From the NCBI GenBank assembly GCA_000960865.2, contig JZWU02000005.1, positions 1 to 64,000 on the forward strand: a stretch of DNA of 64,000 bases, given 5' to 3'. The DNA is from Vulcanisaeta sp. AZ3. GTDB lineage: Archaea > Thermoproteota > Thermoprotei > Thermoproteales > Thermocladiaceae. The stretch's first letter is position 1; each line of letters opens with the position of its first letter. Positions 7,364 through 44,472 of the stretch are shown here, one piece after another. The position numbers and the translations under genes are program-made. The notes under the pieces are model-generated. The model saw only the letters and a list, made by a program, of their open reading frames with translations, had not been told where the DNA came from and made no database searches.

Positions 7364-8251
7364 TTAAATCCTGAGAAGATTTATGTAGTTAATAAGAACA
7401 TCATCCCCCAATACCTTCTTCACCATATTCAGAGCTTCATCAAGCATATTATTCAGCATATCTTTAGCAGTTCCTACTGCATTGTCTATATCACTATTAA
7501 TACTAAGTATTTTAATTATATTAATTTCATTATTATTAATACCAGGGTTTTGTTTATCCACATTAAAATAATCTAATATATCATCACGAAGCTGAAAGGC
7601 AAGGCCTACAAGCCTACCCACATTCCTAATATTACTGATTAAATCCTCACCCTTAACATTAACTGAATAAGCACCAACTACCATGGAGGACTCGATTAGT
7701 GCAGCCGTCTTGTAATAGATTAGCTTCAAGTAATCATTCACTGTTACGTAGTTCCTATCATTAAGTTCAAGCTCCAAGCCTTGTCCTATGGCAAGCTTAA
7801 TGGAGGAGTTAATGAGCTCAAATACAACATCATTATCACCACTTCTCACTGCAAGCTCTACAGCCTTAGCAATCATTAAGTCACTGGCGAGCATTGCCAT
7901 ATTCTCTCCATAAAGGTTATAGGGTGTCTCTACACCCCTCCTTATCCTCTGTTTGTCCATAATATCGTCTTGCAATAACGATGCCATATGTATAAACTCC
8001 ACTGAGGCTGCAGGCAACACTGCTCTCTCAAGCCCATTACTATTGCTCAGGGCATAGGCTGTTAGAAGGACCAGCGTTGGCCTGATTAATTTACCCTTAT
8101 TCCTTATGTAATGATAGGCTGCATTGCTTAATTTGTTAGGCATCCAGGCATTGTTGAAGGCTTCATTAATGACATTAATAACTCTGGCCAACGCTTCCCT
8201 AACCTTATTGGGTAATAGTTCCATGTATTTCTCTGGATTCAATACTACCAT
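7364..8251 (-). CDS. Polyprenyl diphosphate (GGPP-type) synthase
   Basis: GKLIRP, DDIMD, KTA and FQLRDDILD motifs. Confidence 0.9.
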   Translation of the reverse strand: MVVLNPEKYMELLPNKVREALARVINVINEAFNNAWMPNKLSNAAYHYIRNKGKLIRPTLVLLTAYALSNSNGLERAVLPAASVEFIHMASLLQDDIMDKQRIRRGVETPYNLYGENMAMLASDLMIAKAVELAVRSGDNDVVFELINSSIKLAIGQGLELELNDRNYVTVNDYLKLIYYKTAALIESSMVVGAYSVNVKGEDLISNIRNVGRLVGLAFQLRDDILDYFNVDKQNPGINNNEINIIKILSINSDIDNAVGTAKDMLNNMLDEALNMVKKVLGDDVLINYINLLRI

Positions 8252-8310: not shown

Positions 8311-9501
8311 CTAAATTAACTTAATCAGTGGACTACCAATTAGAAACTTAAGTAACGTGCCTAATTTCATTGATGATAATGTAGCCTCATAGATAGAACT
8401 TGCCAAGAAATTCCTCGAAATTCTTAATGCCTTCTCCATGGTAGTTTTACTCATTAATAAGGGATCACCAAGCTTCCTAAATAGTAACATTCTATCCATT
8501 AATGGCTTAAAGATTTTATTCATTAGTTCGTGATAACTCTCACCACGAATTAGTGACTCACCAAGTAAGTGCGCCGTTATCATGGCTGGATTTATACCTG
8601 CACCATTAGTGGGAATTACAGAACCAACAGCGTCACCAATGAGATAAGCACTATCAACACCATACCTATCTAATAACCCACCCACAGGCAAGGCCTTCAT
8701 TAGTATTGACCTACGGGAATGCTCTAAACCATACTTTCTAGTAAACTCCATATGTCTGTTCATCGGATTAACTCCACTCCATGCCACGTTGTTCCTAACC
8801 CCAACACCAATATTATGAGATCCATCACCCCTCGGAAAAATCCAAGCGAAACCACCAGGTGCTAGTTCTGGGTCCATTATAATCACAGCCTCTTCCTCAT
8901 CATAATTACCCGTTGCTCTAGCACTCGTGGCTATTATTAAATCTACATCCTTAAACCCATGAGTTATCCCTAAACTTTTATCAACAATTGAGGGATATGC
9001 GTCGGCACCTACTAAGTATTTGCTACGAATTACGTACTCGCCTCCCTCTCTCTCATGAACAAGGCATTCATAACCAACACTCTTATTAATGCACCTAATA
9101 CTAACCACTCCAAATTTGATTCTGGCACCACCATTAATCGCATCCTTAAGAACATCCTTAATCAATGCCTCCTTATTGATTAAATAAGTCTTGAAAGGCA
9201 TTGTGCCTATATCATGGTCGTTGATCAAAATCCTTAACTCCTTAATCTCATTAACAATGTGCTCCTTACGGAGCGTCTCCTTAATTGTGGTAAGGAGTAC
9301 ATTATTTAGGCCTTTATTGATCCAAGGGCTGAGTAGATCCTCACTAGGTAGTAGTTCACCGCATATTATTGGTGCGTAGATCACGGATTTCTTATCAATG
9401 ACCATAACATCACCATCAAACCCATTCCTGACTAAGTAACGGGCTAGGTAGGAACCTGCAGGCCCACCGCCAACTATTAGTATGTCAGTATTAACACCCA
9501 C
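8311..9501 (-). CDS. Geranylgeranyl reductase family flavoprotein
   Basis: GGGPAGS, PGGFAWIFP and GDAVG..P..GAGI motifs; adjacent to the prenyl synthase. Confidence 0.85.
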   Translation of the reverse strand: MGVNTDILIVGGGPAGSYLARYLVRNGFDGDVMVIDKKSVIYAPIICGELLPSEDLLSPWINKGLNNVLLTTIKETLRKEHIVNEIKELRILINDHDIGTMPFKTYLINKEALIKDVLKDAINGGARIKFGVVSIRCINKSVGYECLVHEREGGEYVIRSKYLVGADAYPSIVDKSLGITHGFKDVDLIIATSARATGNYDEEEAVIIMDPELAPGGFAWIFPRGDGSHNIGVGVRNNVAWSGVNPMNRHMEFTRKYGLEHSRRSILMKALPVGGLLDRYGVDSAYLIGDAVGSVIPTNGAGINPAMITAHLLGESLIRGESYHELMNKIFKPLMDRMLLFRKLGDPLLMSKTTMEKALRISRNFLASSIYEATLSSMKLGTLLKFLIGSPLIKLI

Positions 9502-9578
9502 GCGGATTATGCAATCGTTTATTTAATTAAATATTTGTGTATGGAAATCCTTAAAAAATCCAAATAAACCACAATGAC

Positions 9579-9785
9579 GTGCCTAGGGAAGTATTCTTAG
9601 TGGAGCTATGGCGGAGATACGCAGATACCGCTGAAGAGATTAGAGTTAAGAGATATCCGGACTACGTGAAGTTAAAAGCAAGGCTAAAGCACCACCTATA
9701 CACAATAAGGGTACCGAGTGACGTAGCTGAGCAATTAATTAGGGAATATAAATCAAAGAACAAAAAAGTAACAGAGTATTCCTAA
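9579..9785 (+). CDS. rpl38e: Ribosomal protein eL38 (L38e)
   Basis: MPR...VKLKAR...LYT pattern typical of L38e; 68 aa; GTG start after a TATA box. Confidence 0.8.
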   Translation: MPREVFLVELWRRYADTAEEIRVKRYPDYVKLKARLKHHLYTIRVPSDVAEQLIREYKSKNKKVTEYS

Positions 9786-9889
9786 CCACGGCATTATTTG
9801 ATACATAATTATTTCCACTAATCCACGAATGACCCTACGAAGTAATGATGACTTACCATAATCATTAATACCGGCCCACCAATCATCAT

Positions 9890-9947
9890 AACATCAGTGC
9901 TCCAAACCCTCAACATAAATTCAGATATTAATTAATTCATCATCGGG
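9890..9947 (-). ncRNA. C/D box sRNA
   Basis: Minus strand: C ATGATGA (9943-9937), 12-nt spacer, D' CTGA, C' ATGTTGA, guide GGGTTTGGAGCA, D CTGA (9897-9894). Confidence 0.7.
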
Positions 9948-9983
9948 CTAATAAACCTTATTAAGGGTAGGGAATTCATCACA

Positions 9984-10229
9984 ATGATGTCTACGGAAGA
10001 ATTAATAGGTAAGGCTAGGGAGGTAATTATGAAGTTAAGGAATGCAGAGCAATTAATAATGGATGGAAAGCTTGATGACGGCGTAAAATTATTCAAGGAG
10101 GCTACTAAGGAAGCAGTAGATAATGGGTTATTTGATAATTACATAGCAATAATTAGGAGAATTAGGCGTTTAATAATCAATGAGAAACATAAACAAACAA
10201 GTAAAGCTGAGGCTAAGTCAGGAACTTGA
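9984..10229 (+). CDS. Small helical hypothetical protein
   Basis: ORF with upstream TATA box and normal codon usage. Confidence 0.7.
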   Translation: MMSTEELIGKAREVIMKLRNAEQLIMDGKLDDGVKLFKEATKEAVDNGLFDNYIAIIRRIRRLIINEKHKQTSKAEAKSGT

Positions 10230-11577: not shown

Positions 11578-12560
11578 TCATGTAATTTTCACATGGTTAT
11601 AACTACCAAGGACCTTTAAGTAAGTGGTAACTTTATTCAACTCTCTAATAGCTTCAGTACAAATAACATCTCTTAACTGGCACTCGACTTCAAGTAGGAA
11701 ATCGTACCCCCACGGGCTCTGCCTATTGGGTTTCGAGTAAATCATTGATAAATTAAGACCTCTCTCAGCGAGGGGCCTAAGGGCATTATATAGGGCACCG
11801 GGTCTGTTGGGAATTGAGAATATGATTAGCGTTCTATCACCAACCATCGGAATGCGCTTACTGATTATTAGGAATCTCGTGTAATTAGGTCTATCTTCAA
11901 TGCCGCAAACCATGGCCTTTAAGCCATGTATCTCTGCGCCAAGCCTCGATGCTATAGCAGCCCTATTCTTAAACCCCTTTATCCTCTCTAAGGCCTCTGA
12001 GGTGGATTGTGTATATATCACTGATGCTCCGTGCCTTGTTATGAAATTCATAGCCTCGGAAATAGCATGAGGATGAGAGTATATCTCGGTTATCTCCTCC
12101 ATGGATTTCACGCAATCATTGACTATGAGACATAGATTTACCCTATACTCAACAGAGTACTTAATACCCACATCCCACTTTATCAATGAATCCATGGAAT
12201 CACCAACAACACCTGCCAAGTTATTCTCAATTGGTATTACACCAAAGCCACAATTATTATCGTAGACACACTTAACTACCTCCTCCACACTCCTCATAGG
12301 CAAATACTGCTTGCCTTCACCAAACAATCTAATTGCAACCTCATGTGAATAACTACCACTAGGTCCCAAAAACCCCACTGAATCATTAATTATATACTCA
12401 CTGAACAACCTAATTAGTATGGGTTCATGAACATTACTAATTAATTCCTTAAGCATTTCACTATCAACCAGACCACTGCTTAATACTTCCCTTAACTCAA
12501 CTAAGTTATTCTCAAGATTCTTTACCAGGTTTATTATTCTTTGAATTCCAGCTCGTTCAC
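11578..12560 (-). CDS. pheA: Prephenate dehydratase with ACT domain; promoter-proximal GTG 12560 is out of frame, first in-frame ATG is 12456
   Basis: FLGPSGSYS, PIEN, SHPHA, NYTRF and PGAL motifs. Confidence 0.88.
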
Positions 12561-13614: not shown

Positions 13615-13700
13615 TAATTAAATAAATAGAGTACTTATTATGCATTATCCAGATATAGAGCATAAGAATACTTATAAATGACAGTGAAATTCCATTAATA

Positions 13701-14048
13701 ATGAATTTATTGAGAGGTGGTGAGGAGAGTTGGGAGAGACTCAATGACTTAGCCTTTAGGAAGTATGCGCATGGGTCGAGAGTTACGATTGCTCAATTTA
13801 AACTGCTAAGAGGTTCGTACGTTAAGCCGCATTCACATCCTCACGAACAAGTCTCCATAGTTATTCAGGGAAGGGTTAGGTTCACGGTTGGCAATGAGGA
13901 GATTGAGTTAAGACCTGGAGATGCTGTGTTAATACCGCCAAACGTGATGCATGATGCGGAGGCTCTTGAGGATTCACTTGTTGTAGATGTTTATTCCCCG
14001 ATAAGGGATGACTGGATTAGGGGTGAGGATAATTATTTACGATCTTAA
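13701..14048 (+). CDS. Cupin domain protein
   Basis: HSHPHEQ...IPPNVMH motifs. Confidence 0.9.
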   Translation: MNLLRGGEESWERLNDLAFRKYAHGSRVTIAQFKLLRGSYVKPHSHPHEQVSIVIQGRVRFTVGNEEIELRPGDAVLIPPNVMHDAEALEDSLVVDVYSPIRDDWIRGEDNYLRS

Positions 14049-14050
14049 CC

Positions 14051-15232
14051 TTAAGGTTGCTGTGGAGAATATTTATTGCTCATCAAATCCCTTATTATTT
14101 GCTTAATATCTCCCTCGGTAATCCTAAAACCCGCATCACCTAATTCCTTAATTCTCTCTAGTATTTTATTTACTAAGACCTCGTGGGGCTCAATGCCCAT
14201 AGACCTAAGTACGAATTCTACAGAATGCCTACCACTATGCTTACCAATCACTATTTTACGGTTCATGCCAACACTCTCTGGACTTATTGGCTCATAAGTA
14301 ATCGGGTTGGATAACACACCATGTACGTGTATTCCAGATTCGTGAGAGAAGGCATTGGCACCAACAATGGCCTTATTCGGCGGCACTGGTATTTTAAACA
14401 ACCTAGATACCAAATCAGAGACTTCCTTTATCTTCTCGAACTTAATTCCAACGTTATAGTTTAACAGGAATTTCACGGCAGCTGCAATCTCCTCAAGTGC
14501 CGCATTACCAGCTCTCTCCCCAACACCGTTTATTGTACCATGCACTTGATCAGCCCCAGCCTCTATAGCTGTCACGCTATTGGCAACTGCCATTCCGAAG
14601 TCATCATGACAATGAACACTCAATAAATAATCACCCTTAACATTCTCCTTGACAAAACTAACAAGCCAAGCCATCTTACTCGGCCACATAACGCCCACCG
14701 TGTCGGCAATATCCAACCTATCAGCACCTGCATTAACAACCTCCTGGAAAACCCTTACGAGGAACTGCGGATCACTCCTAGTTGCATCCTCTGCACTAAA
14801 CTCCACAATCATACCATGAGACTTTGCGTATTCTACAGCTTCTACGGCGGTACTAACCACCTTCTCCCTATTCATCTTCAACTTATACTTCATGTGTATG
14901 TCTGATGTAGCTATGAAGATGTGTACAGCTCCAACGTCAGCATCAATGACCCTATTGATATCCTCTCTTCTCGTCCTAGCCAGAGCTATGACCTCGGTAT
15001 CAGTGACCTCCCTCGCTATATCCTTAACGGCCCTAAACTCACCATCGCTTACTATTGGAAAGCCAGCCTCTATTGAGTCAACACCCAACTCTTCAAGCTT
15101 AAGGGCTATGGCCAATTTATCCTCAGACCTCAGGGCAACACCAGGAGTTTGTTCGCCATCCCTTAGTGTCGTATCTAAGAACCTAACGTACCTACCACCT
15201 ACCGAACCCTGAACTACATTTTCCTGAGCAAT
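14051..15232 (-). CDS. leuA: 2-isopropylmalate synthase, short form without C-terminal regulatory domain; frame begins at ATT 15232
   Basis: DTTLRDGEQTPG lies upstream of the ORF-track start (15115); HCHDD, GERAGN and HESGIH motifs; adjacent to ilv/leu genes. Confidence 0.88.
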   Translation of the reverse strand: MAQENVVQGSVGGRYVRFLDTTLRDGEQTPGVALRSEDKLAIALKLEELGVDSIEAGFPIVSDGEFRAVKDIAREVTDTEVIALARTRREDINRVIDADVGAVHIFIATSDIHMKYKLKMNREKVVSTAVEAVEYAKSHGMIVEFSAEDATRSDPQFLVRVFQEVVNAGADRLDIADTVGVMWPSKMAWLVSFVKENVKGDYLLSVHCHDDFGMAVANSVTAIEAGADQVHGTINGVGERAGNAALEEIAAAVKFLLNYNVGIKFEKIKEVSDLVSRLFKIPVPPNKAIVGANAFSHESGIHVHGVLSNPITYEPISPESVGMNRKIVIGKHSGRHSVEFVLRSMGIEPHEVLVNKILERIKELGDAGFRITEGDIKQIIRDLMSNKYSPQQP

Positions 15233-15373
15233 CTATCCCACCAAACCTTAACTAAAAATACTCTATTTAAGCTTTATTCTAAGAGAAATATATTAATGAG
15301 AATCACGATAATAAACAATATATTTAGTTATGATGAAGAAAAACTTAAATATTCTATAGTTGACTTCCACCTG

Positions 15374-20373: not shown

Positions 20374-21049
20374 AACACATTATGTATATATGCCTTTTAA
20401 AGATTACACTGTATATATCGATATGGTCCTAATTAATTCAATATAATACAAATATGCGATCTAAAAAATCAATATAAGTTCTTGATATAATTGTAAGGGA
20501 TTATGTATAAGCAGCTAATATATTTTTATATTAAAATGATGGTATTATGAATAGCATTACTCCTCAGTGATGAATTACATAGAGAACGGTCGATAAACTC
20601 AGATCCCTAAAAAGGTATTTTTAACCATGCCTTGAGTAAATTATTGTAAAGTCATTAATAGTGTAACGATAGAGAGTTTGAATATAGCTACTAAATGTAC
20701 TCTGTCTGAATTTAATAAAGTGAAACTTATAGACCACGTTACTAAATGGAGTTAGAAATATGAAGAGAACAGTTAAGGCTTTCATAGAGTTTTCTAACGA
20801 AAGAACTAAGAGCTATCCATGGATATCACAATGACAAGTATCACAGGACTCTTCGATAATTTTAATTGCTACACACCTAAAATTTAATAATTATAATATT
20901 ACAAGGTAAGCAATAGAATTGGTATGGAGTATTCATAATTGATTAATAATTATTAATTTTGATATTTATGCTATGATCGTGAATATATATTTTTCTGGGA
21001 AAGGTAAATTTTAAATAGGTAGTATGCACGTGCCTATATAGGTGACTGG

Positions 21050-22176
21050 ATGGAAATGGAAACCAAGTACTAGATAGAGGCCTTTGGATTTCAAAGGTTG
21101 GGGGTTCCCTACTAACGAGAAAATCAACTCTTAGAACTATAAGCAGTGTTATTGGGAGAGATCTAAAGCCTGGCAGTAGATTAATCCTTGTGGTTTCAGC
21201 AATGAAGGGGGTAACGGACTTACTTATCAGAGCTCTAGATGAGCATAATCCTGCATTTATAGATGAAGCTGTGTCGATGTATGTTGATGAGGCGTTATAT
21301 CTTGAGTTAAAATCATATGCTAAGTTTCTGGAGTTTGTTAATGAGGAATTACGTAGGTTTGTGAATATAGATGAACCCTGGGTTAAGGATCATACTATTG
21401 TTCATGGAGAGTTATTGTCATCATTGCTTGTTGAGGGTATCTTAAATGATATAATTGGTGTTAGGGCTAAGGCGGTTTATGAACCTGGAATAGTGGTTAA
21501 GCAAGAGTGGGGTAATGCAAGTGTTATTCATGAGCTGAGTAATACCTTTGTTCGTGAAAGGTATGATGGATTGATTAGGAAGTACGATGTTGTAGTTGTA
21601 CCTGGATTCTTGGGTGTGACGTTGGATGGTAGGTATGCATCGTTGGGTAGGGGCGGCAGTGATTACACAGCTTCGTTGCTTGCTAACTATCTGAGTGCCT
21701 CAGGGCTGACGTTCTATACAGACAGTGGCGGTCTACTTAGTGGTGATCCTAAGGTTGTGAATGATCCTGTGCTCATTAGGGAGGTTTGTTATGAGGAGGC
21801 TTATGCGGCTGCGATGGTTGGCGCTAAGAAGTTCCATCCAAGGACCTTTGAACCATTACTTAATAGTAATGTTAGGATGTTAATAACAAGCCCGTGGCTT
21901 GATGTCGGTACTTATATAACTAATAAGTGTATTGACACACCTAAAATAGTTAGTCTTAGCGGTGATGGAAGGTCTCTTAAGGTTTCTGTGGTGGGTTATA
22001 ATGCAGCTAAGAGGGAAGATGTATTCAGTGAGGTTTATACTATTGCATCCTCGTACGGTATAAACAGTATTACGCATGATAACGATCACGTACTATCCAT
22101 GCCTGTGGATGATTATAAAATAGCATTAACCCTCGTTAGAGATATACATAGGTGGGTGAGAAAATGGATAAGTTGA
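21050..22176 (+). CDS. Aspartate kinase; ATG 21050 is out of frame and the kinase frame is reached by -1
   Basis: KVGGS (21094-21108) lies upstream of the first in-frame canonical start (21190); [15 protein letters not shown] and DP motifs. Confidence 0.88.
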
Positions 22177-23183
22177 GGGTTTCAATACTTGGTTCTACGG
22201 GATTGGTTGGTCAGTGGATGGTTAAGTTGCTTGAGAATCACCCATTTATAGAGGTTGTGAAGCTCTCAGCATCGCCTGGCAAGGTTGGTCATAAGTATGG
22301 TGATTCTGTTCATTGGTTCATACCTGGAGACATACCTGAATATGCTAAGGACGTAATCCTATCCTCAACGGAACCCTCTGACCATAAGGATGTTGATATC
22401 GTCCTCTCAGCATTACCCAATGAGATTGCTGGCTCAATTGAAAATAAGTTATTGAAAGAGAGCATTAATGTAATATCTAACGCATCGCCTGAGAGATTAA
22501 GTCCAAGGATTCCATTAATAAACCCAGAGGTTAATTGGGAGCACTTACTGGTGCTTAAGGATGTTAAGGGTAATTGGCTTGTTAAGAATCCTAATTGCAC
22601 AGCAACGATAATATCCATGCCCCTAAAGCCAATCCGAGACTTAATCAAGGACCTCTACATAGTAACGCTGCAATCGGTAAGTGGGGCGGGTTATTTAGGC
22701 GTATCGTATCTAGCAATTGATGGTAATGTTATACCATTCATAAAGGGTGAGGAGGAAAAAATCGATGTAGAGTTAAATAAGATGCTTGGTAGGCAATTCC
22801 AAGATCGCTATGATCCATGGGGTAAGCCCATTAGTGTCACTGCCACTAGAGTGCCTGTTAAGTATGGGCATATGGCTGTAATATATGCCACACTTAATGA
22901 CCAGGTAAGTCAAGAACAAATAATCAATAAGTTGAGGAACTTCAAATCATTACCGCAAGAGGCTGAGTTACCGATGGCGCCGAAAGATCCGATTAAGGTA
23001 TTAGATAGAGTTGATGCACCACAGCCCGCCAGGGACTTAGATCCAATGGCAGTAAGTGTTGGTAGGATTTCTATCAGAGGCGATGTACTAAGGATGGTGA
23101 TTTTAGGTGATAATCTTGTTCGTGGTGCTGCAGGCGTCACAATACTTACACTAGAAACCATGAGGCATCTAAATTTAATTTAA
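22164..23183 (+). CDS. asd: Aspartate-semialdehyde dehydrogenase
   Basis: GSTGLVG, NPNCT, QSVSGAG and NLVRGAAG motifs. Confidence 0.93.
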
Positions 23184-24158
23184 TTTAACGTTACTAATTA
23201 TATCTACTAAGTCCGTGAGCACGGCTTGTGCTGTCTCTAACTTACCTGCGCCAGGACCTATTATTACTAATTCTCCGAGGGTATTAAGCTTAAGCTTTAA
23301 GGCATTTAGGTTATTTGAAACATGAGCCAGTATATCATCTTTATCTAGCGGTACTGGCTTGACGCAGGCTTTATTCTTATCAGCGTAAGCTATTAATTTA
23401 ACAATTTTATTATCATGACCCTTAATATCAATTCCCCTAATTCCTTCAACCTCCATGTTCTCAAGTGTATGTCTCCAACCAATGGCCCTAGATAGTATAA
23501 TGGTCTTAAGGGCTGCGTCGATACCATCAATGTCGAGCGACGGATCTGCCTCTGCATAACCCATTTGTTGGGCTTGTCTTAAGGCCTCATTAAATGATAA
23601 GCCCTCTCTATACATCTTAGTTAGTATGAAGTTTGTAGTTCCATTTAGTATTCCCATGAAGTACTCCACATAAGCGCCGGGTAGCAGGTTAAGTATGTTA
23701 AAGGATGGTGTGCCTGCCATGACCGTGCCCTTAAATTTAACAAGCCTACCATGCCTCTTACTAAGTTCCATTAATTCATCATAATGAAATGCTATGGGAC
23801 CCTTATTAGTGGTTATTACATGTTTACCGCTCTTCAATGCTGTGGTTATGTACGTGAAGGCAGGCTCGCCTCTAGTCTTAACTATTAAATCCGTGAACTC
23901 ACACATAATATCAGCATTACTCTCCATGATTATTCTAGGCACATCATCAACATCAATCCTCTCACCTAGCAATACGCCCTTACTTGCATGCTCAATTATG
24001 TTGATTTTCGGATTCACAATATGACCACGTCTACGATCTACAATTTCCGTGACTTTAACATTCAATTTTAATTCTGTATCGATTTTATTTAATAATTCGA
24101 AGAACGCCTGGCCAACATTTCCGAAACCCACAATCAGCACTTTAATAGTATCTTCCAC
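23175..24158 (-). CDS. hom: Homoserine dehydrogenase
   Basis: [30 protein letters not shown] and GPGAG motifs. Confidence 0.93.
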
Positions 24159-24256
24159 GTTACTTAATATTATTGTGTTTATTTAAAATATTACTGTTAC
24201 TCAATACCCTATTTACCTAATGGTAATGCTTAAATATCCCATTAATTATCCATATA

Positions 24257-25491
24257 ATGGGGATTGAAATGGAAACCAGGAATTAATAAGAAGGTCTCTA
24301 GACAAGTATGTACTTAAGTGCCCAAGGTGTGGCTATGAGGTTGAGGCAAATCCGTTCATAATGAGGTGCCCAAGGTGTGGTGAATTACTTGATGCTGAGT
24401 TAATAGCCGAAATGATTCATATTAGGTGGGATAGGCTGCACGGTAGGGGTGTTTGGAGATATGAGAGATTGCTTCCTAGATTAAATAGTGTGGTCACTAT
24501 GGGTGAAGGATCAACACCATTAATAAGACTCAAACAATTCTCTAATGCTTATGTTAAGTTTGAGGGGCTGAATCCAACGGGTTCCTTTAAGGATAGAGGA
24601 ATGACAATTGGTACATCATTAGCTTTAGCAATAGGTGCAAGAGGGATAATTGTGGCGTCTACAGGGAATACTGCAGCCTCGGCGGCAGCTTATTCAGCTA
24701 GGGCAGGCCTTGAGTGCTTGGTAGTGCTTCCTAGGGGTGGTGTGGCTAGGGGTAAGTTGGCTCAGTCTATGTTGCATAATGCACGTATATTAGAGGTTAC
24801 TGGGACCTTCGATAATGCCTTGGAGTATGTGCTGGATTCCGTGTTGAGTAATGGTGCTGTTAATGGTGTTAATTACTATCCACTTAACTCAATAAATCCA
24901 TGGAGACTAGAGGGTCAGAAAACAATTGCATATGAAATCGTTGAGGAGCTTGGTGTCCCTGACTTTGTGTTTGTTCCTGTGGGTAATGGCGGTAATATTT
25001 ACGCTATTTGGAAGGGATTTAGAGAATTGGTGGAGCTTGGTGTGATCGATCGTGTACCAAGGATGATGGGGGTGCAGGCTGAGGGGGCTAATCCAATGGT
25101 TAGGTATTGGAGAGGGCTTGGTGAGGCTAAGATTGAGAATCCGAGGACTGTAGCCTCAGCAATAAGGATTGGCAAACCAATTAATTGGTTTAGAGCCTTC
25201 AGGGCCGTTAAGTATAGTAATGGCACCTTCCTGGAGGTTAGCGATGAAGAGATATTAAATGCCCAGAGAGTACTTGGTAGGGAGGGTATAGGTGTTGAGC
25301 CGGCTAGTGCAGCATCGCTGGCAGGTTACTTAAGGGCGTTAAAAGACGGTCTTGTGGATAGGAATGATAAAGTGGTGCTAATAGCCACAGGGCATGCTCT
25401 TAAAGATCCCGATATACTAACTATGGGGAATGCGCAGTTTATGAGGGTGTCATCAATCAATGAATTAAGAACGTTAATTGCCACTAAGTAA
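24257..25491 (+). CDS. thrC: Threonine synthase; ATG 24257/24269 are out of frame and the enzyme frame is reached by -1
   Basis: NPTGSFKDRG, ASTGNT, PVGNGGN and EPASA motifs; the first CPRC of the Zn ribbon (24319-24330) precedes the first in-frame ATG. Confidence 0.9.
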
Positions 25492-27438: not shown

Positions 27439-28307
27439 ATGGAACGGGAACCACGATTGGGCAAAGTTCAGGAGATAATAATGAAGTGACCATACTGTAT
27501 GATTTCGTGAGAACTGAGGAGAAGTTACTTGTTAATGAGTTCAGAAAGCTCGGTGTCAACCTGAGGTTGATAAATATTGATAAGCTATCACTAAGACTTG
27601 ATAGTGAGGTCAGCCTTGGAGTATCATTAGTTAGGCCAGTAAGCCATTTAAAGGCTAGTCTCGTGGCTAAGGTGCTTAATGCACACGGAGTTATTACAAT
27701 AAACAATGGTCTCGCCATAGAAAACGCTTGGAATAAGGCGGTAGCATTATCCATATTAGCAAAGTCCGGAATACCCATTGTGCCAACAAAGCTTCTATTC
27801 TCTGTGGAGTTTAACGATGATGGAATTCAGTATCCAGTTATTGTTAAGCCTGTCCATGGATCCTGGGGCAGATTAGTAAGCCTCGTGGGTGATATGGATG
27901 AGCTAAGGCTCGTGCTTAAACACAATGCTCTTGATAATGCTAATCCTAGAATTTACATGCTACAACCATTCATTGGTAATGGTAAAGATTATAGGGTCTT
28001 TGTTATTGGTGATGAGGTAGTGGCTTCAATGACTAGGTTACCTAGCGATGGCGATTGGCGCAGTAATGTAGCTAGAGGTGGTATTCCACGTGCCGTTAAA
28101 CTTAGCGATGATGCTTACGAATATGCAGTTAAGGCGGTTAAGGTTCTTGGGCTCGATTACGCTGGCGTTGATATGCTTCAAGGTCCAAATGGTTATTTGA
28201 TTAATGAGGTTAATGCAATACCTGAATTTAAGGGCTTAATGATAGCATCTGGCGTTAACATAGCACGTAAAATAGCTAAGTACGTAATAAACCTAGTCAG
28301 AAGGTGA
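27439..28307 (+). CDS. argX: Glutamate--LysW ligase ArgX-like; leader ATG 27439 is out of frame, in-frame GTG at 27486
   Basis: KPVHGSWGR, WRSNVARGG and NEVNAIPEF motifs; lacks the LysX-type IYR/NT signature. Confidence 0.75.
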
Positions 28308-35187: not shown

Positions 35188-35292
35188 TGCATAATCTAGT
35201 TCTTTAGGGTATATATACATTATGTATACATGACATGGGTATTAGAATCTTAGGGGCAAAGCTTATAAAATATTTAGAATTACGGAGTGTGA

Positions 35293-36373
35293 ATGATTCG
35301 GATTAAGAAGACGCTACTTAGTACTTCAGGATGGAAGTATATATCGTGGTTATGCCTTTGGTGCTGATGGTAATGCCGTTGGGGAGGTCGTCTTCACAAC
35401 AGCTAACGTTGGCTATCCTGAATCACTCACAGATCCGTCGTATAAGGGGCAAATACTCATATTCACAATGCCGCTAATCGGCAATTACGGCGTATCGCCA
35501 GACCAATGGGAGAGCAGCTCAATTCAAGTTAGTGGTATAGTTGTATTTGATGTAACATCACCAAGCCATTATACGTCAATAATGAGTCTTGATGAGTGGT
35601 TAAGGAGGGATGGTATACCTGGTGTCTTTAGGGTTGATACGAGGGCTATAACTATCAAGTTAAGGGAGCTGGGTGTTATGATGGGCGCTATAGCTGATAA
35701 TCCGGCTGAGGGGTTTAGGTTGATTAGAAGTGCTCCTCGTTATGATGATTTTGATTTCGTAAAGCTCGTGTCACCAAGTGACATAATTAATTATGATAAT
35801 AATGATGGACCATGTATAGGTATTGTGGATTGTGGCGTAAAAATGGGTATTGTGAGAAACTTACTAGCAAGAGGCGTTAGGGTTGTTAGATATCCTTGTC
35901 ATATGTGGTCCAGGGTTATTAACGAATGCGACGGTGTCGTCTTAAGCAACGGTCCAGGCAACCCAAATCTCTTGAACTTTCTCATAGATGCCGTGACAGA
36001 CATAATTATGGATAGAAAGCCAACCCTAGGTATATGCCTAGGTCACCAAGTAATAGCCCTTGGTGTGGGGGCGAGACTTTATAAGATGAAGTATGGACAC
36101 AGAGCGATAAACAAGCCTGTGCTAGACTTAATTAGGGGAAGAGTCTACGTGACAACTCACAACCATGGTTATGCTGTAGATCCGCAATCAATAAAGGGTA
36201 CGGGCTTTAAGATATGGGCAGTACAACCCGATGATAAGACTGTAGAGGGTTTGATACATGAGAAGTTACCAATAATAACTACGCAATTCCATCCAGAGGC
36301 TAGGCCTGGGCCCAATGATACTACTTGGATCTTTGATGAGTTCATAAAGTTAGTGATGAGGTATGGACATTAG
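35293..36373 (+). CDS. carA: Carbamoyl-phosphate synthase small subunit; ATG 35293 is out of frame and the enzyme frame is reached by +1
   Basis: YLVLQDG, GEVVFTT and GYPESLTDPSYKGQI all lie upstream of the first in-frame ATG (35468); SNGPGNP, GICLGHQ and QFHPE motifs. Confidence 0.9.
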
Positions 36374-39491: not shown

Positions 39492-40635
39492 TTACGATCT
39501 CTCCTCAATTGGTATATACTTAAGTCCAATGGGTCCTGTATACCTCTCTGTAGGTCTTATCAGCTTACCATTCATCTGCCAATACTCAAGGGTATGTGCT
39601 GTCCAACCAACCATTCTTGCCATTGCGAAGTTGGCGGGATTATACTCGGGTGGGAATCCTAGGAAGTAAAATATTAGTGATGTATATAGGTCAGTATTTG
39701 CATAAATCCCCTTACTACTTAGGTGCTTTTCCACAGCTCTTTCAAGAGCAAGAGTAGTTTCGTAAAGTTTAACATAATCACTACCTCCCTCCTTAGCCAG
39801 ATCACTGGCAATAGCCCTGAGGTAAGTAAGCCTTGGATCGGCATACTTCTTATACAATCTATGACCAAAGCCTATGATCTTCTCCCCACGCCTCAACTTC
39901 TCCACCACATAGTTCTCAGCTTTAGATGGATCGGTGGCTTCCATTATTGTCCTCAGGGCTTCGAAACTCGCTCCTCCATGTAACGGACCCTTAAGACCCG
40001 ATAAAGCAGCTACCATAACCGAATAGATATCACTCCATGTCGAGGCCACAGTGACTGCTGTAAAGGAGGAGTTATTCATTCCATGTTCCATGTATGTTAT
40101 GAACATTGCCTCAAGAGCCCTTAACTCAGTGGTGCTAGGCTCCTTATTAAAGAACATGTAGAAATAATCGGCCACGTGACCTAAATCATCCCGTGGCCTT
40201 GGTATAATTCCATCACTACTTAATCTATAGTACGTAGCCACTATGGTGGGTGCCTTTGCTATGATAGATATGGCCTTCTCATAATCATTCTTACCCTTAC
40301 TAAAAGCCTCCTTTATCCAAGGTGCCTAAATGATTGATTGAAAGTCTGAGTACATCAATCGGACGTAGACCTCTCGGTAACTCTCTAAGTAAACTCAATA
40401 CCTCATTCGGTAGTTCTCTATTCATGGCCAACAAATCCTTAAAACTTGCTAGCCCCTCCTTATTGGGCAACTTCCCATTTAATAATAAATAGGCTACCTC
40501 CTCAAAGTTAGCCTTTACGGCAAGTTCTGATAAATCATAACCCCTATAGTAAATTTTCGCATTATCAAGGTCTATGAAACATACTTTACTCTCTTTAACT
40601 ATTATTCCCTCAAGACCCCAAGCAACTGTTGCCAT
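39492..40635 (-). pseudogene. gltA: Si-citrate synthase split by a +1 frameshift near 40300-40316
   Basis: N-part has GLEG..IYYRGY..FEEVAYLL; C-part has EHGMN, GPLHGGA, GFGHRLY and NTD; frames join as LDK|EAFSKGKNDYEKAISIIAKAPTIVA. Confidence 0.8.
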
Positions 40636-43258: not shown

Positions 43259-44472
43259 TTAGTTCTTATGCCTAGCCCTAAATGCTGTTAATGAGTGCAT
43301 TGTGTGCATTTTAATGAAGCCTCTAGCTTCCTCCTCGCTTGGGTACCAACCACCTATGTAATCTACTAACTCCTTACTGTAGCTTGCATATGGGCTTTCC
43401 CTACCTACTATTGTTAATCCACCAAGCACCCTAATCCTCACTTTACCGCTAATCCACTTATTCATTGACCTAATAAGCTGCTCTAACTCTTCACGCAATG
43501 GCTCATGCCAAAGCCCTTGATAAACAAGATCTGTCCAGGTCTGATCCACAATCTTCTTAAACCTATACTCCAATGGTGTATAGATTAACTTTTCAAGATC
43601 CTTGTGAACCTCTATTAGCGTTAAGGCAGCAGGCGCTTCATAGACCTCCCTGGACTTAAAGCCCACAACTCTATTCTCCACATGGTCAATCCTACCAAAA
43701 CCGTGCATACCAACGATTCTATTTAACGTGGTTATTATGCTCACAAGATCCATCCTCTCGCCGTTAACAGCTATGGGTAAGCCCTCCTTGAACTCAATCT
43801 CTAGATTTAGTGGTTCATGTACCTTCTCTAGGGGGATCGTCCATTTGAATGCATCTTCAGGTACTTCCACAGATGGATCGTCTATCTCATGGCCCTCAAT
43901 GCTCCTCGACCATAGATTATCATCTATACTGAACCTGCTGTGTATGTTGGGTATTGGTATGTTGTTCCTTCTGGCATACTCAATCTCACTGGCCCTATCC
44001 ATATTCCAGATCTTGGCTGGTTCTATGATCATGAGATCAGGTGCTAATGCCATGAGGGCTTCATTAAATCTAACCTGGTCATTACCCTTAGACGTGGAGC
44101 CGTGGGCCACTGCATCGCAACCCTCCCTTTTAGCAACTTCAACAATTCTCTCAGCGATTAATGGTCTAGCTAATGCTGTACCTAATGGATACTTATCCTC
44201 GTAGAGAGCATTTGCCATTATCGCCGTGGCTACTGGGCCGTTGGCAAAGTCTTGCCTCGCATCTATAGTAATGTGCTTCGTAGCACCAGCTTTGTAAGCT
44301 CTTCTCTCAATGTCCTCAAAATCATCATCCTGACCAACATTGACCGTGACTGTTATAACCTCTGCATTAAACTTACTCCTTAACCAATGAATTGCAACTG
44401 TGGTGTCTAAACCTCCTGAGAATGCTAAGACAATTTTACCTGGCTTTTTGTGCTCCGGTTTAAATTATTCAC
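43259..44472 (-). CDS. argG: Argininosuccinate synthase; GTG 44472 is out of frame and the enzyme frame is reached by -1
   Basis: KIVLAFSGGLDT PP-loop lies upstream of the first in-frame start (44218); HGSTSKGNDQVRF and KSREVYEAP motifs. Confidence 0.92.

Follow-up and report, generated by a model that had tools for sequence, protein, structure and literature searches.

We analyzed a 64,000-nucleotide stretch of DNA from the archaeon Vulcanisaeta sp. AZ3 (contig JZWU02000005.1, positions 1 to 64,000; referred to here as the window) and found that its threonine synthase gene (thrC) and its aspartokinase (AK) gene are each preceded by a very short upstream open reading frame (uORF) that lies one base out of register with the enzyme and overlaps its reading frame. 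These leaders are real, not artefacts, and they are conserved across a class. We consider it likely, judging from comparative sequence evidence, that they sense amino-acid supply by means of a −1 frameshift at a hungry codon, so that expression of the enzyme would be attenuated by frameshifting. On balance we also favor a broader reading in which leaders of 3–16 codons, each sensing an amino acid with a single hungry codon, would form a class-wide regulon gating genes for threonine, methionine, phenylalanine, tyrosine, tryptophan and arginine, and perhaps histidine transport.

The thrC leader of the window carries a candidate promoter consisting of a B recognition element (BRE)/TATA-like sequence (AATGCTTAAATAT; 24225–24237, + strand), for which a promoter role is suggested by its position. 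The TATA-like part, TTAAATAT, occupies 24230–24237 (+) and is the TATA that an earlier note on this DNA gave at 24229. The uORF runs from 24269 to 24286 (+; ATG at 24269, GAA ACC AGG AAT, and TAA at 24284–24286) and encodes METRN. An alternative in-frame ATG at 24257 would yield MGIEMETRN, but it is not conserved as a start among relatives and was set aside, so we take ATG 24269 as the working start. Relative to this uORF the thrC frame is −1 and opens just after a TGA at 24265–24267 (stop-to-stop ORF 24268–25491; translation NGNQELIRRSLDKYVLKCPRCG, NGNQELIRRSLDKYVLKCPRCGYEVEANPFIMRCPRCG). The proposed −1 slip site is G_GAA_ACC (24271–24277, +), with GAA (Glu) as the P-site codon and ACC (Thr) as the A-site codon, and threonine synthase would be read in the −1 frame from AAC 24274 to 25491 (+), giving the predicted N-terminus M-E-N-Q-E-L-I-R-R-S-L-D-K-Y-V-L-K-C-P-R-C-G. 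The translation of 24271–25488 scores 269.1 bits against TIGR00260 and so passes the curated cut-off of 167.1. Scanning the open thrC frame, we found no ATG, GTG or TTG before ATG 24361. This first canonical start lies inside the N-terminal Zn ribbon (24319–24378, +), between its two CxxC pairs (CPRC at 24319–24330 and at 24367–24378), leaving the first pair 5' of it. Both pairs are kept among relatives with synonymous third-position changes, and ATG 24361 is not a conserved Met in the thrC genes of relatives. Since the upstream pair is conserved and the Met is not, ThrC does not start at 24361.

The leader of the AK-asd operon begins with a TATA-like candidate promoter (TTTAAATA; 21010–21017, +), and GTAAATTTTAAATA of this leader is conserved within the genus. 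A Shine-Dalgarno-like GGTGA (21041–21045, +) lies 4 nucleotides 5' of the uORF ATG and about 13 nucleotides 5' of the Thr slip site; kept as GGTGA or GGTGG at the AK leaders of the genus, it may serve initiation or stimulate a −1 shift as in dnaX. The uORF (21050–21073, +; ATG at 21050, GAA ATG GAA ACC AAG TAC, and TAG at 21071–21073) encodes MEMETKY and contains two proposed slip sites in tandem (21052–21064, +), namely G_GAA_ATG for Met (21052–21058) and G_GAA_ACC for Thr (21058–21064). The kinase is encoded in the −1 frame (21055–22176, +, from AAT 21055 or AAC 21061; stop-to-stop ORF 21046–22176), and this frame holds no canonical start until GTG 21190, downstream of the KVGGS motif. Its product scores 178–179 bits against TIGR00657 and TIGR00656, below their respective cut-offs of 208.7 and 402, and we therefore call it AK-like, on the strength of its E-value against TIGR00657 (3.3e-52), its KVGGS N-terminus and its asd-hom-thrC neighborhood. 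The gene order is AK-asd-hom-thrC, with asd following at 22152 and hom on the opposite strand, divergent from the thrC leader.

Both leaders contain the 13-mer GAAATGGAAACCA. Exact copies occur in the window only at 21053–21065 and 24266–24278 (both +), with up to one mismatch allowed in the search; shuffled sequence gave a mean of 0.13 matches, and 1 of 100 shuffles reached two. As the earlier note had pointed out, each copy sits in a short uORF one base out of register with AK or thrC, and the Met codon is preceded by G-GAA in AK and by T-GAA in thrC. The 13-mer is not conserved as a unit, however. Among relatives ATG-GAA-ACN is the only part that holds up, and even members of the genus differ in the GAA that precedes the thrC ATG, so part of the identity between the two copies is coincidental.

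We read the 5' regions of the best thrC locus at 30 places in 41 related genomes, covering the window's family (f1) and a sister family (f2), with genera coded g1 (the window's), g2, g4 and g5. All 30 loci have a uORF with a canonical start in the register that makes thrC −1, and each has a Thr codon immediately preceded by a codon that is itself flanked on its 5' side by a copy of its first base (a context denoted X_XNN). The site is G_GAA_ACN at 20 loci (f1) and G_GGG_ACN at the other 10 (f2). From 0 to 4 or more whole codons separate the uORF start from the P-site codon, and it is by whole codons that this spacing differs. The Thr codon itself varies between ACC, ACA and ACG, which is synonymous only in the uORF frame, and the GGA-AAC of the enzyme frame is invariant in the 20 f1 loci although other Gly and Asn codons exist; this pattern points to selection acting in the uORF frame at the thrC site. 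In many lineages the enzyme frame carries a stop one or two codons before the site, and no such stop occurs after it. No canonical start is found in the open thrC frame upstream of the Zn ribbon at 11 of the 30 loci. Same-genus thrC loci also keep AATGCTTAAATA about 30 nucleotides 5' of the uORF ATG.

A wider sample of the class comprised 75 genomes, 46 of them with a thrC ortholog at E ≤ 1e-90, and from these a further 11 5' regions were read. Six, which extend the design to four more families, share it, with G_GAC_ACG (1), G_GGA_ACA (2), C_CAA_ACA (2) or G_GAA_ACA (1) as the site; three have ordinary in-frame starts and two are unclear. Thr codons make up 52 per 1000 in this genome, so the occurrence of five different P-site contexts, each followed by Thr, is unlikely to be due to chance (about 4e-7 as a rough estimate). 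A scan for GGAAAC alone (398 sites) yielded 4 candidates, two of which were AK and thrC.

Across 24 AK loci with readable 5' ends, the Thr site is in the −1 arrangement at 16 and a Met codon occupies an X_XNN site at 15; ATGGAAATGGAAACC is present at every same-genus AK locus. The Met and Thr sites are adjacent in g1 (G_GAA_ATG_GAA_ACC) and one codon apart in g2 (GAA ATG CGG GAA ACA), and g5 has the Thr site alone. In f2 the kinase directly follows thrC and has a normal ATG, and one leader may therefore serve both genes. Lysine in such archaea does not derive from aspartate, which fits an AK leader with Met and Thr sites and no Lys site; LysW-pathway genes are also present in the window.

Leaders of this type precede genes of several other pathways, and the codon after the slip-prone codon corresponds to the pathway product: thrC has Thr, AK has Met and Thr, pheA has Phe, argG has a rare Arg codon, trp has Trp, and aro has Tyr, Phe and Trp. 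An assembly-wide scan required that G_GAA have a uORF start no more than six codons away and be followed by a long −1 ORF lacking any start upstream; of 809 sites, 18 matched, including AK (two sites), thrC, pheA, a transketolase gene and an MFS transporter gene. Two broader lists, of long ORFs with a late first start (222) and of −1 overlapping uORFs with a TATA-like motif (226), were too noisy to use in that form, most of their entries being antisense ORFs or ordinary ATGA-type overlaps.

For pheA, the window contains a uORF encoding VNELEFKE (12534–12560, − strand) with G_GAA_TTC at 12549–12543 and prephenate dehydratase in the −1 frame, where the 31 codons that follow the slip site include no canonical start. 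The pheA leaders of relatives carry G_GAA_TTY (14 loci), C_CAA_TTY (4) or G_GGG_TTY (8), that is, 26 of 30 by eye; an automated tally with a narrower search span gave 17 of 30. The argG leader uORF encodes VNNLNRSTKSQVKLS (44425–44472, −), with A_AAC_CGG at 44461–44455 and argininosuccinate synthase in the −1 frame. Relatives have A_AAC_CGG, G_GGA_CGA, G_GAA_CGA or G_GGG_CGA, and the codon is Arg at 26 of 29 loci; CGG and CGA are the rarest Arg codons of this genome, each accounting for 1% of its Arg codons. Two further leaders lie in the segment C7:20001–40000 of the same assembly. The trp leader, MELQWT, with C_CAA_TGG (about 13810–13830 of the segment), stands before trpA, and the −1 codon at the Trp site is the ATG of that gene; C_CAA_TGG is found in 17 of 30 trp leaders of relatives, and in the remaining 13 another gene comes ahead of trpA or the organization is different. 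The aro leader, MEYRNFQW (7672–7698 of the segment), lies ahead of the transketolase-aroA genes and includes sites for Tyr, Phe and Trp, as it does at 12 loci of the window's genus. In g2 the corresponding leader, MEFGTHVEYLEW, has three G_GAA sites for Phe, Tyr and Trp (4 loci), and in f2 the leader M.QGY..SGW has two G_GGG sites for Tyr and Trp (9 loci), so that the pattern is seen at 25 of 30 loci, with 5 unclear. A cross-tally of Thr, Phe and Arg sites over three of these genes was near-diagonal (thrC: Thr 30, Phe 1, Arg 5; pheA: Phe 17, Thr 2, Arg 3; argG: Arg 26, Thr 2, Phe 1), and the control register was low throughout.

These observations lend themselves to a simple mechanistic proposal. 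A ribosome would initiate at the uORF ATG, aided in AK by the Shine-Dalgarno-like GGTGA, and after one to four codons its P site would be occupied by GAA and its A site by ACC; on the AK leader the ATG of the Met site would be encountered before ACC. With charged tRNA-Thr in ample supply, ACC would be decoded, translation would terminate two to three codons further on and no enzyme would be made. With charged tRNA-Thr scarce, the A site would stay empty and the peptidyl-tRNA-Glu could slip back by one base, from GAA to GGA (pairs G-C, G.U and A-U), after which AAC would be read next and the ribosome would run on into thrC or AK. Because starvation for the ACC decoder would trigger the shift into the enzyme frame, low threonine would raise the enzymes that make threonine, and the sign would be homeostatic, with less amino acid giving more enzyme. 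Where a leader contains several sites that all lead into one enzyme frame, and that frame has no stop from the first site onward, the expected logic is OR; included in the class-wide reading, and in our view somewhat probable with it, is that AK would respond to shortage of Met or Thr and the aro operon to shortage of Tyr or Phe or Trp.

How well the P-site tRNA could re-pair after a −1 slip differs from site to site. All thrC sites, and most others, have the first base of the P-site codon duplicated just 5' of it; re-pairing would be perfect for G_GGG, would include a G.U pair for G_GAA, and would be mismatched or absent at the sites named below. A Shine-Dalgarno-like GGTG lies about 7 to 13 nucleotides 5' of many sites (in the thrC, AK, pheA, argG and trp leaders) and might stimulate the shift as in dnaX. 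Overall, comparison supports the earlier suggestion of a threonine-sensing −1 shift at G_GAA_ACC, and a rise in shifting under threonine limitation would be predicted. A −1 shift of the P-site tRNA at a waiting A-site codon is the only model we found that covers all of the observations, and it is from these that we infer the slip, its dependence on tRNA charging, its efficiency and the direction of regulation.

A number of observations weigh against such a mechanism. G_GAA_ACC is not a classical X_XXY_YYZ heptamer, and re-pairing would be imperfect at some sites: C_CAA would place C.U in the middle position, and A_AAC and G_GAC would each be mismatched at the wobble position. In the argG leaders of g4 (L108, L111 and L121), which read GTG GTC ATT ATA CGA, the site T_ATA_CGA allows no re-pairing at all, and the rare Arg codon is kept despite the break with the X_XNN rule. 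No conserved downstream structure was found at the thrC site (alifold over 10 same-genus leaders, −1.3 kcal/mol; pseudoknots not searched), and the 102-nucleotide thrC stretch of the window has a minimum free energy of −14.7 (z = +1.4 vs shuffles). Canonical in-frame starts near the site are present at 19 of the 30 thrC loci, some of them overlapping the uORF stop as ATGA or TTGA, and also at all trp leaders and at the g2 AK genes. At these loci the shift is thus not strictly required, and where such a start adjoins the site the shift would add to ordinary initiation, not replace it. Three same-genus AK loci lack one C downstream of the site, where a shift of +1 instead of −1 would be required; we regard these as indel errors, since the same assemblies split thrC into 2 to 5 pieces, but this is a judgement and not proof. 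Two other genes of the window, carA (35297) and a leuA-like gene (15232, −), also lack canonical starts and have no clear cognate site. Finally, the relatives compared are not independent of one another, so the raw counts given above overstate the support.

The alternative that survives best is constitutive recoding, in which a fixed share of ribosomes would shift −1 regardless of supply and the uORF would either set a low level of expression or tolerate an ancient frameshift. The frames and the slip-prone X_XNN codons suit this explanation as well as they suit a regulated shift. What it leaves unexplained is the match between A-site codon and pathway across lineages that use different P-site codons, and we regard it as unlikely.

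A second possibility is that no frameshift takes place, the enzymes being initiated at non-canonical codons (ATA, ATT, CTA or TTA) or by termination-reinitiation, with the uORF regulating through occupancy or stalling. Certain local arrangements would suit this. The uORF stop in the window overlaps ATA 24286–24288 (TAATA), the thrC genes of some relatives (L003, L004, L005, L006 and L016) have a uORF stop that shares bases with an in-frame start, as ATGA or TTGA, the leader of a LysX/ArgX-type ligase gene ends in GTGA, and other ORFs of the genome (carA, the leuA-like gene and an ABC ATPase) likewise lack canonical starts. On the other hand, relatives share no near-cognate start codon in the interval from the site to the Zn ribbon or KVGGS motif, and canonical in-frame starts appear only in some lineages. 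In f2 thrC this interval is only about five codons long (GAC GGC GTA TTT CTT AGG). A ribosome stalled at a hungry codon would make coupled reinitiation rarer, the opposite of what a biosynthetic gene calls for, and reinitiation accounts neither for the repeated first base before the P codon nor for a main frame that is open from the first of several sites. On these grounds initiation without a shift appears quite improbable.

The shared 13-mer could instead serve as a DNA operator, bound by a transcription factor that controls the threonine pathway, with the frames incidental. It does occur just 3' of two promoter-like elements of one pathway, and its GGAAAT-GGAAAC resembles a tandem hexamer. 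Outside the genus, however, a 7-mer alone is shared, f2 has TCGGGGACN in its place, and variation falls at the third, synonymous position of the Thr codon. An operator predicts neither in-register starts nor whole-codon spacing nor cognate codons in unrelated pathways, and it leaves the absent start codons unexplained, so that this explanation is very unlikely. The earlier note had itself raised an operator, along with a ThrC start at ATG 24361 or at a fixed non-AUG codon, as readings that would undo its proposal; all of these fail, as that ATG is not conserved, no non-AUG codon is fixed, and an operator cannot explain the match of codon to pathway.

A similarly remote explanation is correction at the RNA level, by polymerase slippage or editing that adds one base at GGAAACC or CGGGGAC. 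A one-base insertion would indeed join the uORF start to the enzyme frame. Known polymerase slippage tracts are far longer than the runs present here, which are just A3 or G4 and are missing altogether from C_CAA_TGG, A_AAC_CGG and G_GAC_ACG, and such an insertion gives no account of the cognate-codon pattern.

Sequencing or assembly error, or decay of the genes into pseudogenes, can be practically dismissed, and the earlier note likewise thought sequencing errors very unlikely. The window (contig C5) does come from a 55-contig, 89.85% complete assembly, and some related assemblies are clearly indel-rich. Against this, a hot-spring metagenome contig from a second, independent study spans 20999–24182 with 25 substitutions and no gap, and three others from that study, each ungapped and differing by 1 to 4 substitutions, span 24238–24450, 24112–24327 and 24065–24283. 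Genomes of the genus that are 99% complete and in a single contig (G004, G008, G011, G013, G025 and others) share the arrangement, and the thrC and AK coding regions are intact and conserved.

Beyond the leaders on which the argument above is based, a few related arrangements were seen. A uORF encoding MEREPRLGKVQEIIMK (27439–27489, +), with G_GAA_CGG at 27441–27447, precedes a LysX/ArgX-type ligase gene (Pfam RimK/LysX), and its stop overlaps an in-frame GTG (GTGA, 27486–27489). A leader encoding MEYQYC, with G_GAA_TAT (about 2058–2078 of C7:20001–40000), stands before a gene resembling chorismate mutase/prephenate dehydrogenase; its −1 frame extends for about 30 codons and ends in a TAA that overlaps the gene's own ATG (ATGCTTAA). 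At C6:17670–17715, a uORF encoding MVDKLEH with G_GAA_CAC (His) precedes a gene in the −1 frame resembling MFS metabolite/H+ symporters, and this transporter may be histidine-responsive. Two other candidates were rejected. The uORF encoding MEFHCHL (ATG GAA TTT CAC TGT CAT TTA TAA, with G_GAA_TTT; 13675–13695, −), which lies 5' of a TATA-like element of the leuB-like gene preceding pheA, was judged probably to be due to chance, and MEC at C4:6249 was not counted, as the thiolase gene that follows has its own nearby ATG.

Additional genes with missing starts or split frames were noted in the course of this analysis. The carA gene (35289–35470, +) has no ATG, GTG or TTG for 57 codons, and its conserved N-terminus, RRRYLVLQDGSIYRGYAFGA, begins at the start of the open frame; an overlapping uORF, GTG AAT GAT TCG GAT TAA, contains no Arg codon, and a frame beginning ATG ATT CGG would need +1. 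The gene resembling leuA or homocitrate synthase (15140–15260, −) has no canonical start in its first 30 codons (IAQENVVQGSVGGRYVRFLDTTLRDGEQ); an ATT follows the upstream stop, and a uORF reading TTG CTC AGG AAA ATG TAG overlaps it in the +1 register. An ABC-transporter ATPase-like ORF (C40:1726–2538, +) has no canonical start for 82 codons, and a TTG TTG CGA TAA uORF overlaps an ATA (ATAA) just before its conserved N-terminus, KEPILEVVNVSY. A citrate-synthase-like ORF (39492–40325, −; region 40241–40420) matches positions 107–357 only of the Pfam model, and its N-terminal part (ending in PIDVLRLSINHLGTLDKGGF and a stop) is encoded immediately 5' of it in a different frame, so that a frameshifted gene, a pseudogene and a further recoding site are all conceivable. 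The aroA gene (EPSP synthase; C7:29410–30736) consists of two overlapping ORFs, 9410–10111 and 10092–10736 of C7:20001–40000, which match model positions 3–209 and 217–414, and this split could reflect an internal frameshift or an assembly error. There is also a second thrC-like gene (C6:28665–29693, −), with 41% identity to the ThrC of the window and one in-frame TGA.

The proposed leaders invite comparison with several known systems. In the bacterial prfB gene (release factor 2), an autoregulatory +1 frameshift occurs at a slow A-site codon, where the P-site tRNA slips to a codon with which it can re-pair. As in prfB, the leaders described here would combine an empty A site with a P-site slip, would sense the decoder of the A-site codon, which the gene product restores, and have a Shine-Dalgarno-like element nearby upstream. 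At the sequence level, the A-site codon matches the pathway in thrC, AK, pheA, argG, trp and aro, as a sensor of this kind would require. They differ from prfB in that the shift would be −1 and not +1, the codon waiting in the A site is a sense codon for an aminoacyl-tRNA to decode, the site lies in a leader of 3–16 codons rather than within the gene, and many genes are involved, each with a different sensed codon.

Bacterial leader peptides such as thrL, trpL and pheL control transcription attenuation, and thrL carries Ile in addition to Thr codons. The archaeal leaders resemble them in placing a short ORF with end-product codons before biosynthetic genes (here uORFs of 3–16 codons with canonical starts and cognate codons) and in having mixed leaders for multi-product pathways. 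Unlike the bacterial leaders, they have one regulatory codon per amino acid instead of runs, their proposed output is a choice of frame, and they have no terminator or antiterminator hairpins, for which there is no room since the leader overlaps the reading frame of the gene. With classical −1 frameshifting, as in dnaX and viral gag-pol, they share a conserved −1 transition needed for a conserved product: thrC is −1 at all 30 loci and lacks a canonical start at 11 of them, and the same holds for AK, pheA and argG. In dnaX, moreover, a Shine-Dalgarno-like stimulator lies upstream at a similar distance. They depart from these systems in lacking the X_XXY_YYZ tandem-slip heptamer, so that only the P-site tRNA could re-pair at G_GAA_ACC, G_GGG_ACN, C_CAA_TGG and A_AAC_CGG, in the lack of any conserved hairpin found at the thrC leader, and in a zero-frame product that is a peptide of 5–16 residues. 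Thus, the design would work like the prfB and antizyme sensors and like bacterial leader peptides, but it belongs to neither class.

The closest parallel in terms of mechanism is leftward frameshifting at hungry codons in starved E. coli, described by Gallant and colleagues and covered in passages of Atkins et al. 2016 (PMC5009743), where it is stated that there are no known natural examples giving starvation-specific trans-frame proteins. Archaeal −1 cases mentioned in those passages are the haloviruses (G_GGA_AAC), Mg-chelatase (A_AAA_AAR) and a possible case in Sulfolobus (PMC5009743). In common with the E. coli phenomenon, our proposal involves a single limiting aminoacyl-tRNA, an empty A site and P-site slippage; in contrast to it, since in those passages it figures as an error phenomenon seen with reporters, the archaeal leaders would be a conserved and selected control device. 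We found no description of this mechanism in a search of the full-text literature, to which most subscription journals and supplements were inaccessible.

To our knowledge, archaea lack T-boxes and classical attenuators, and how they match amino-acid synthesis to supply is largely unknown. If our proposal is correct, these leaders would provide an archaeal counterpart of bacterial attenuation and T-boxes, and would be the first natural case of hungry frameshifting at a sense codon being used for regulation. The sensor would be a simple one that can be retargeted by a single codon change. It would also account for the truncated or missed starts that gene callers give for thrC, AK, pheA and argG in genomes of this kind.

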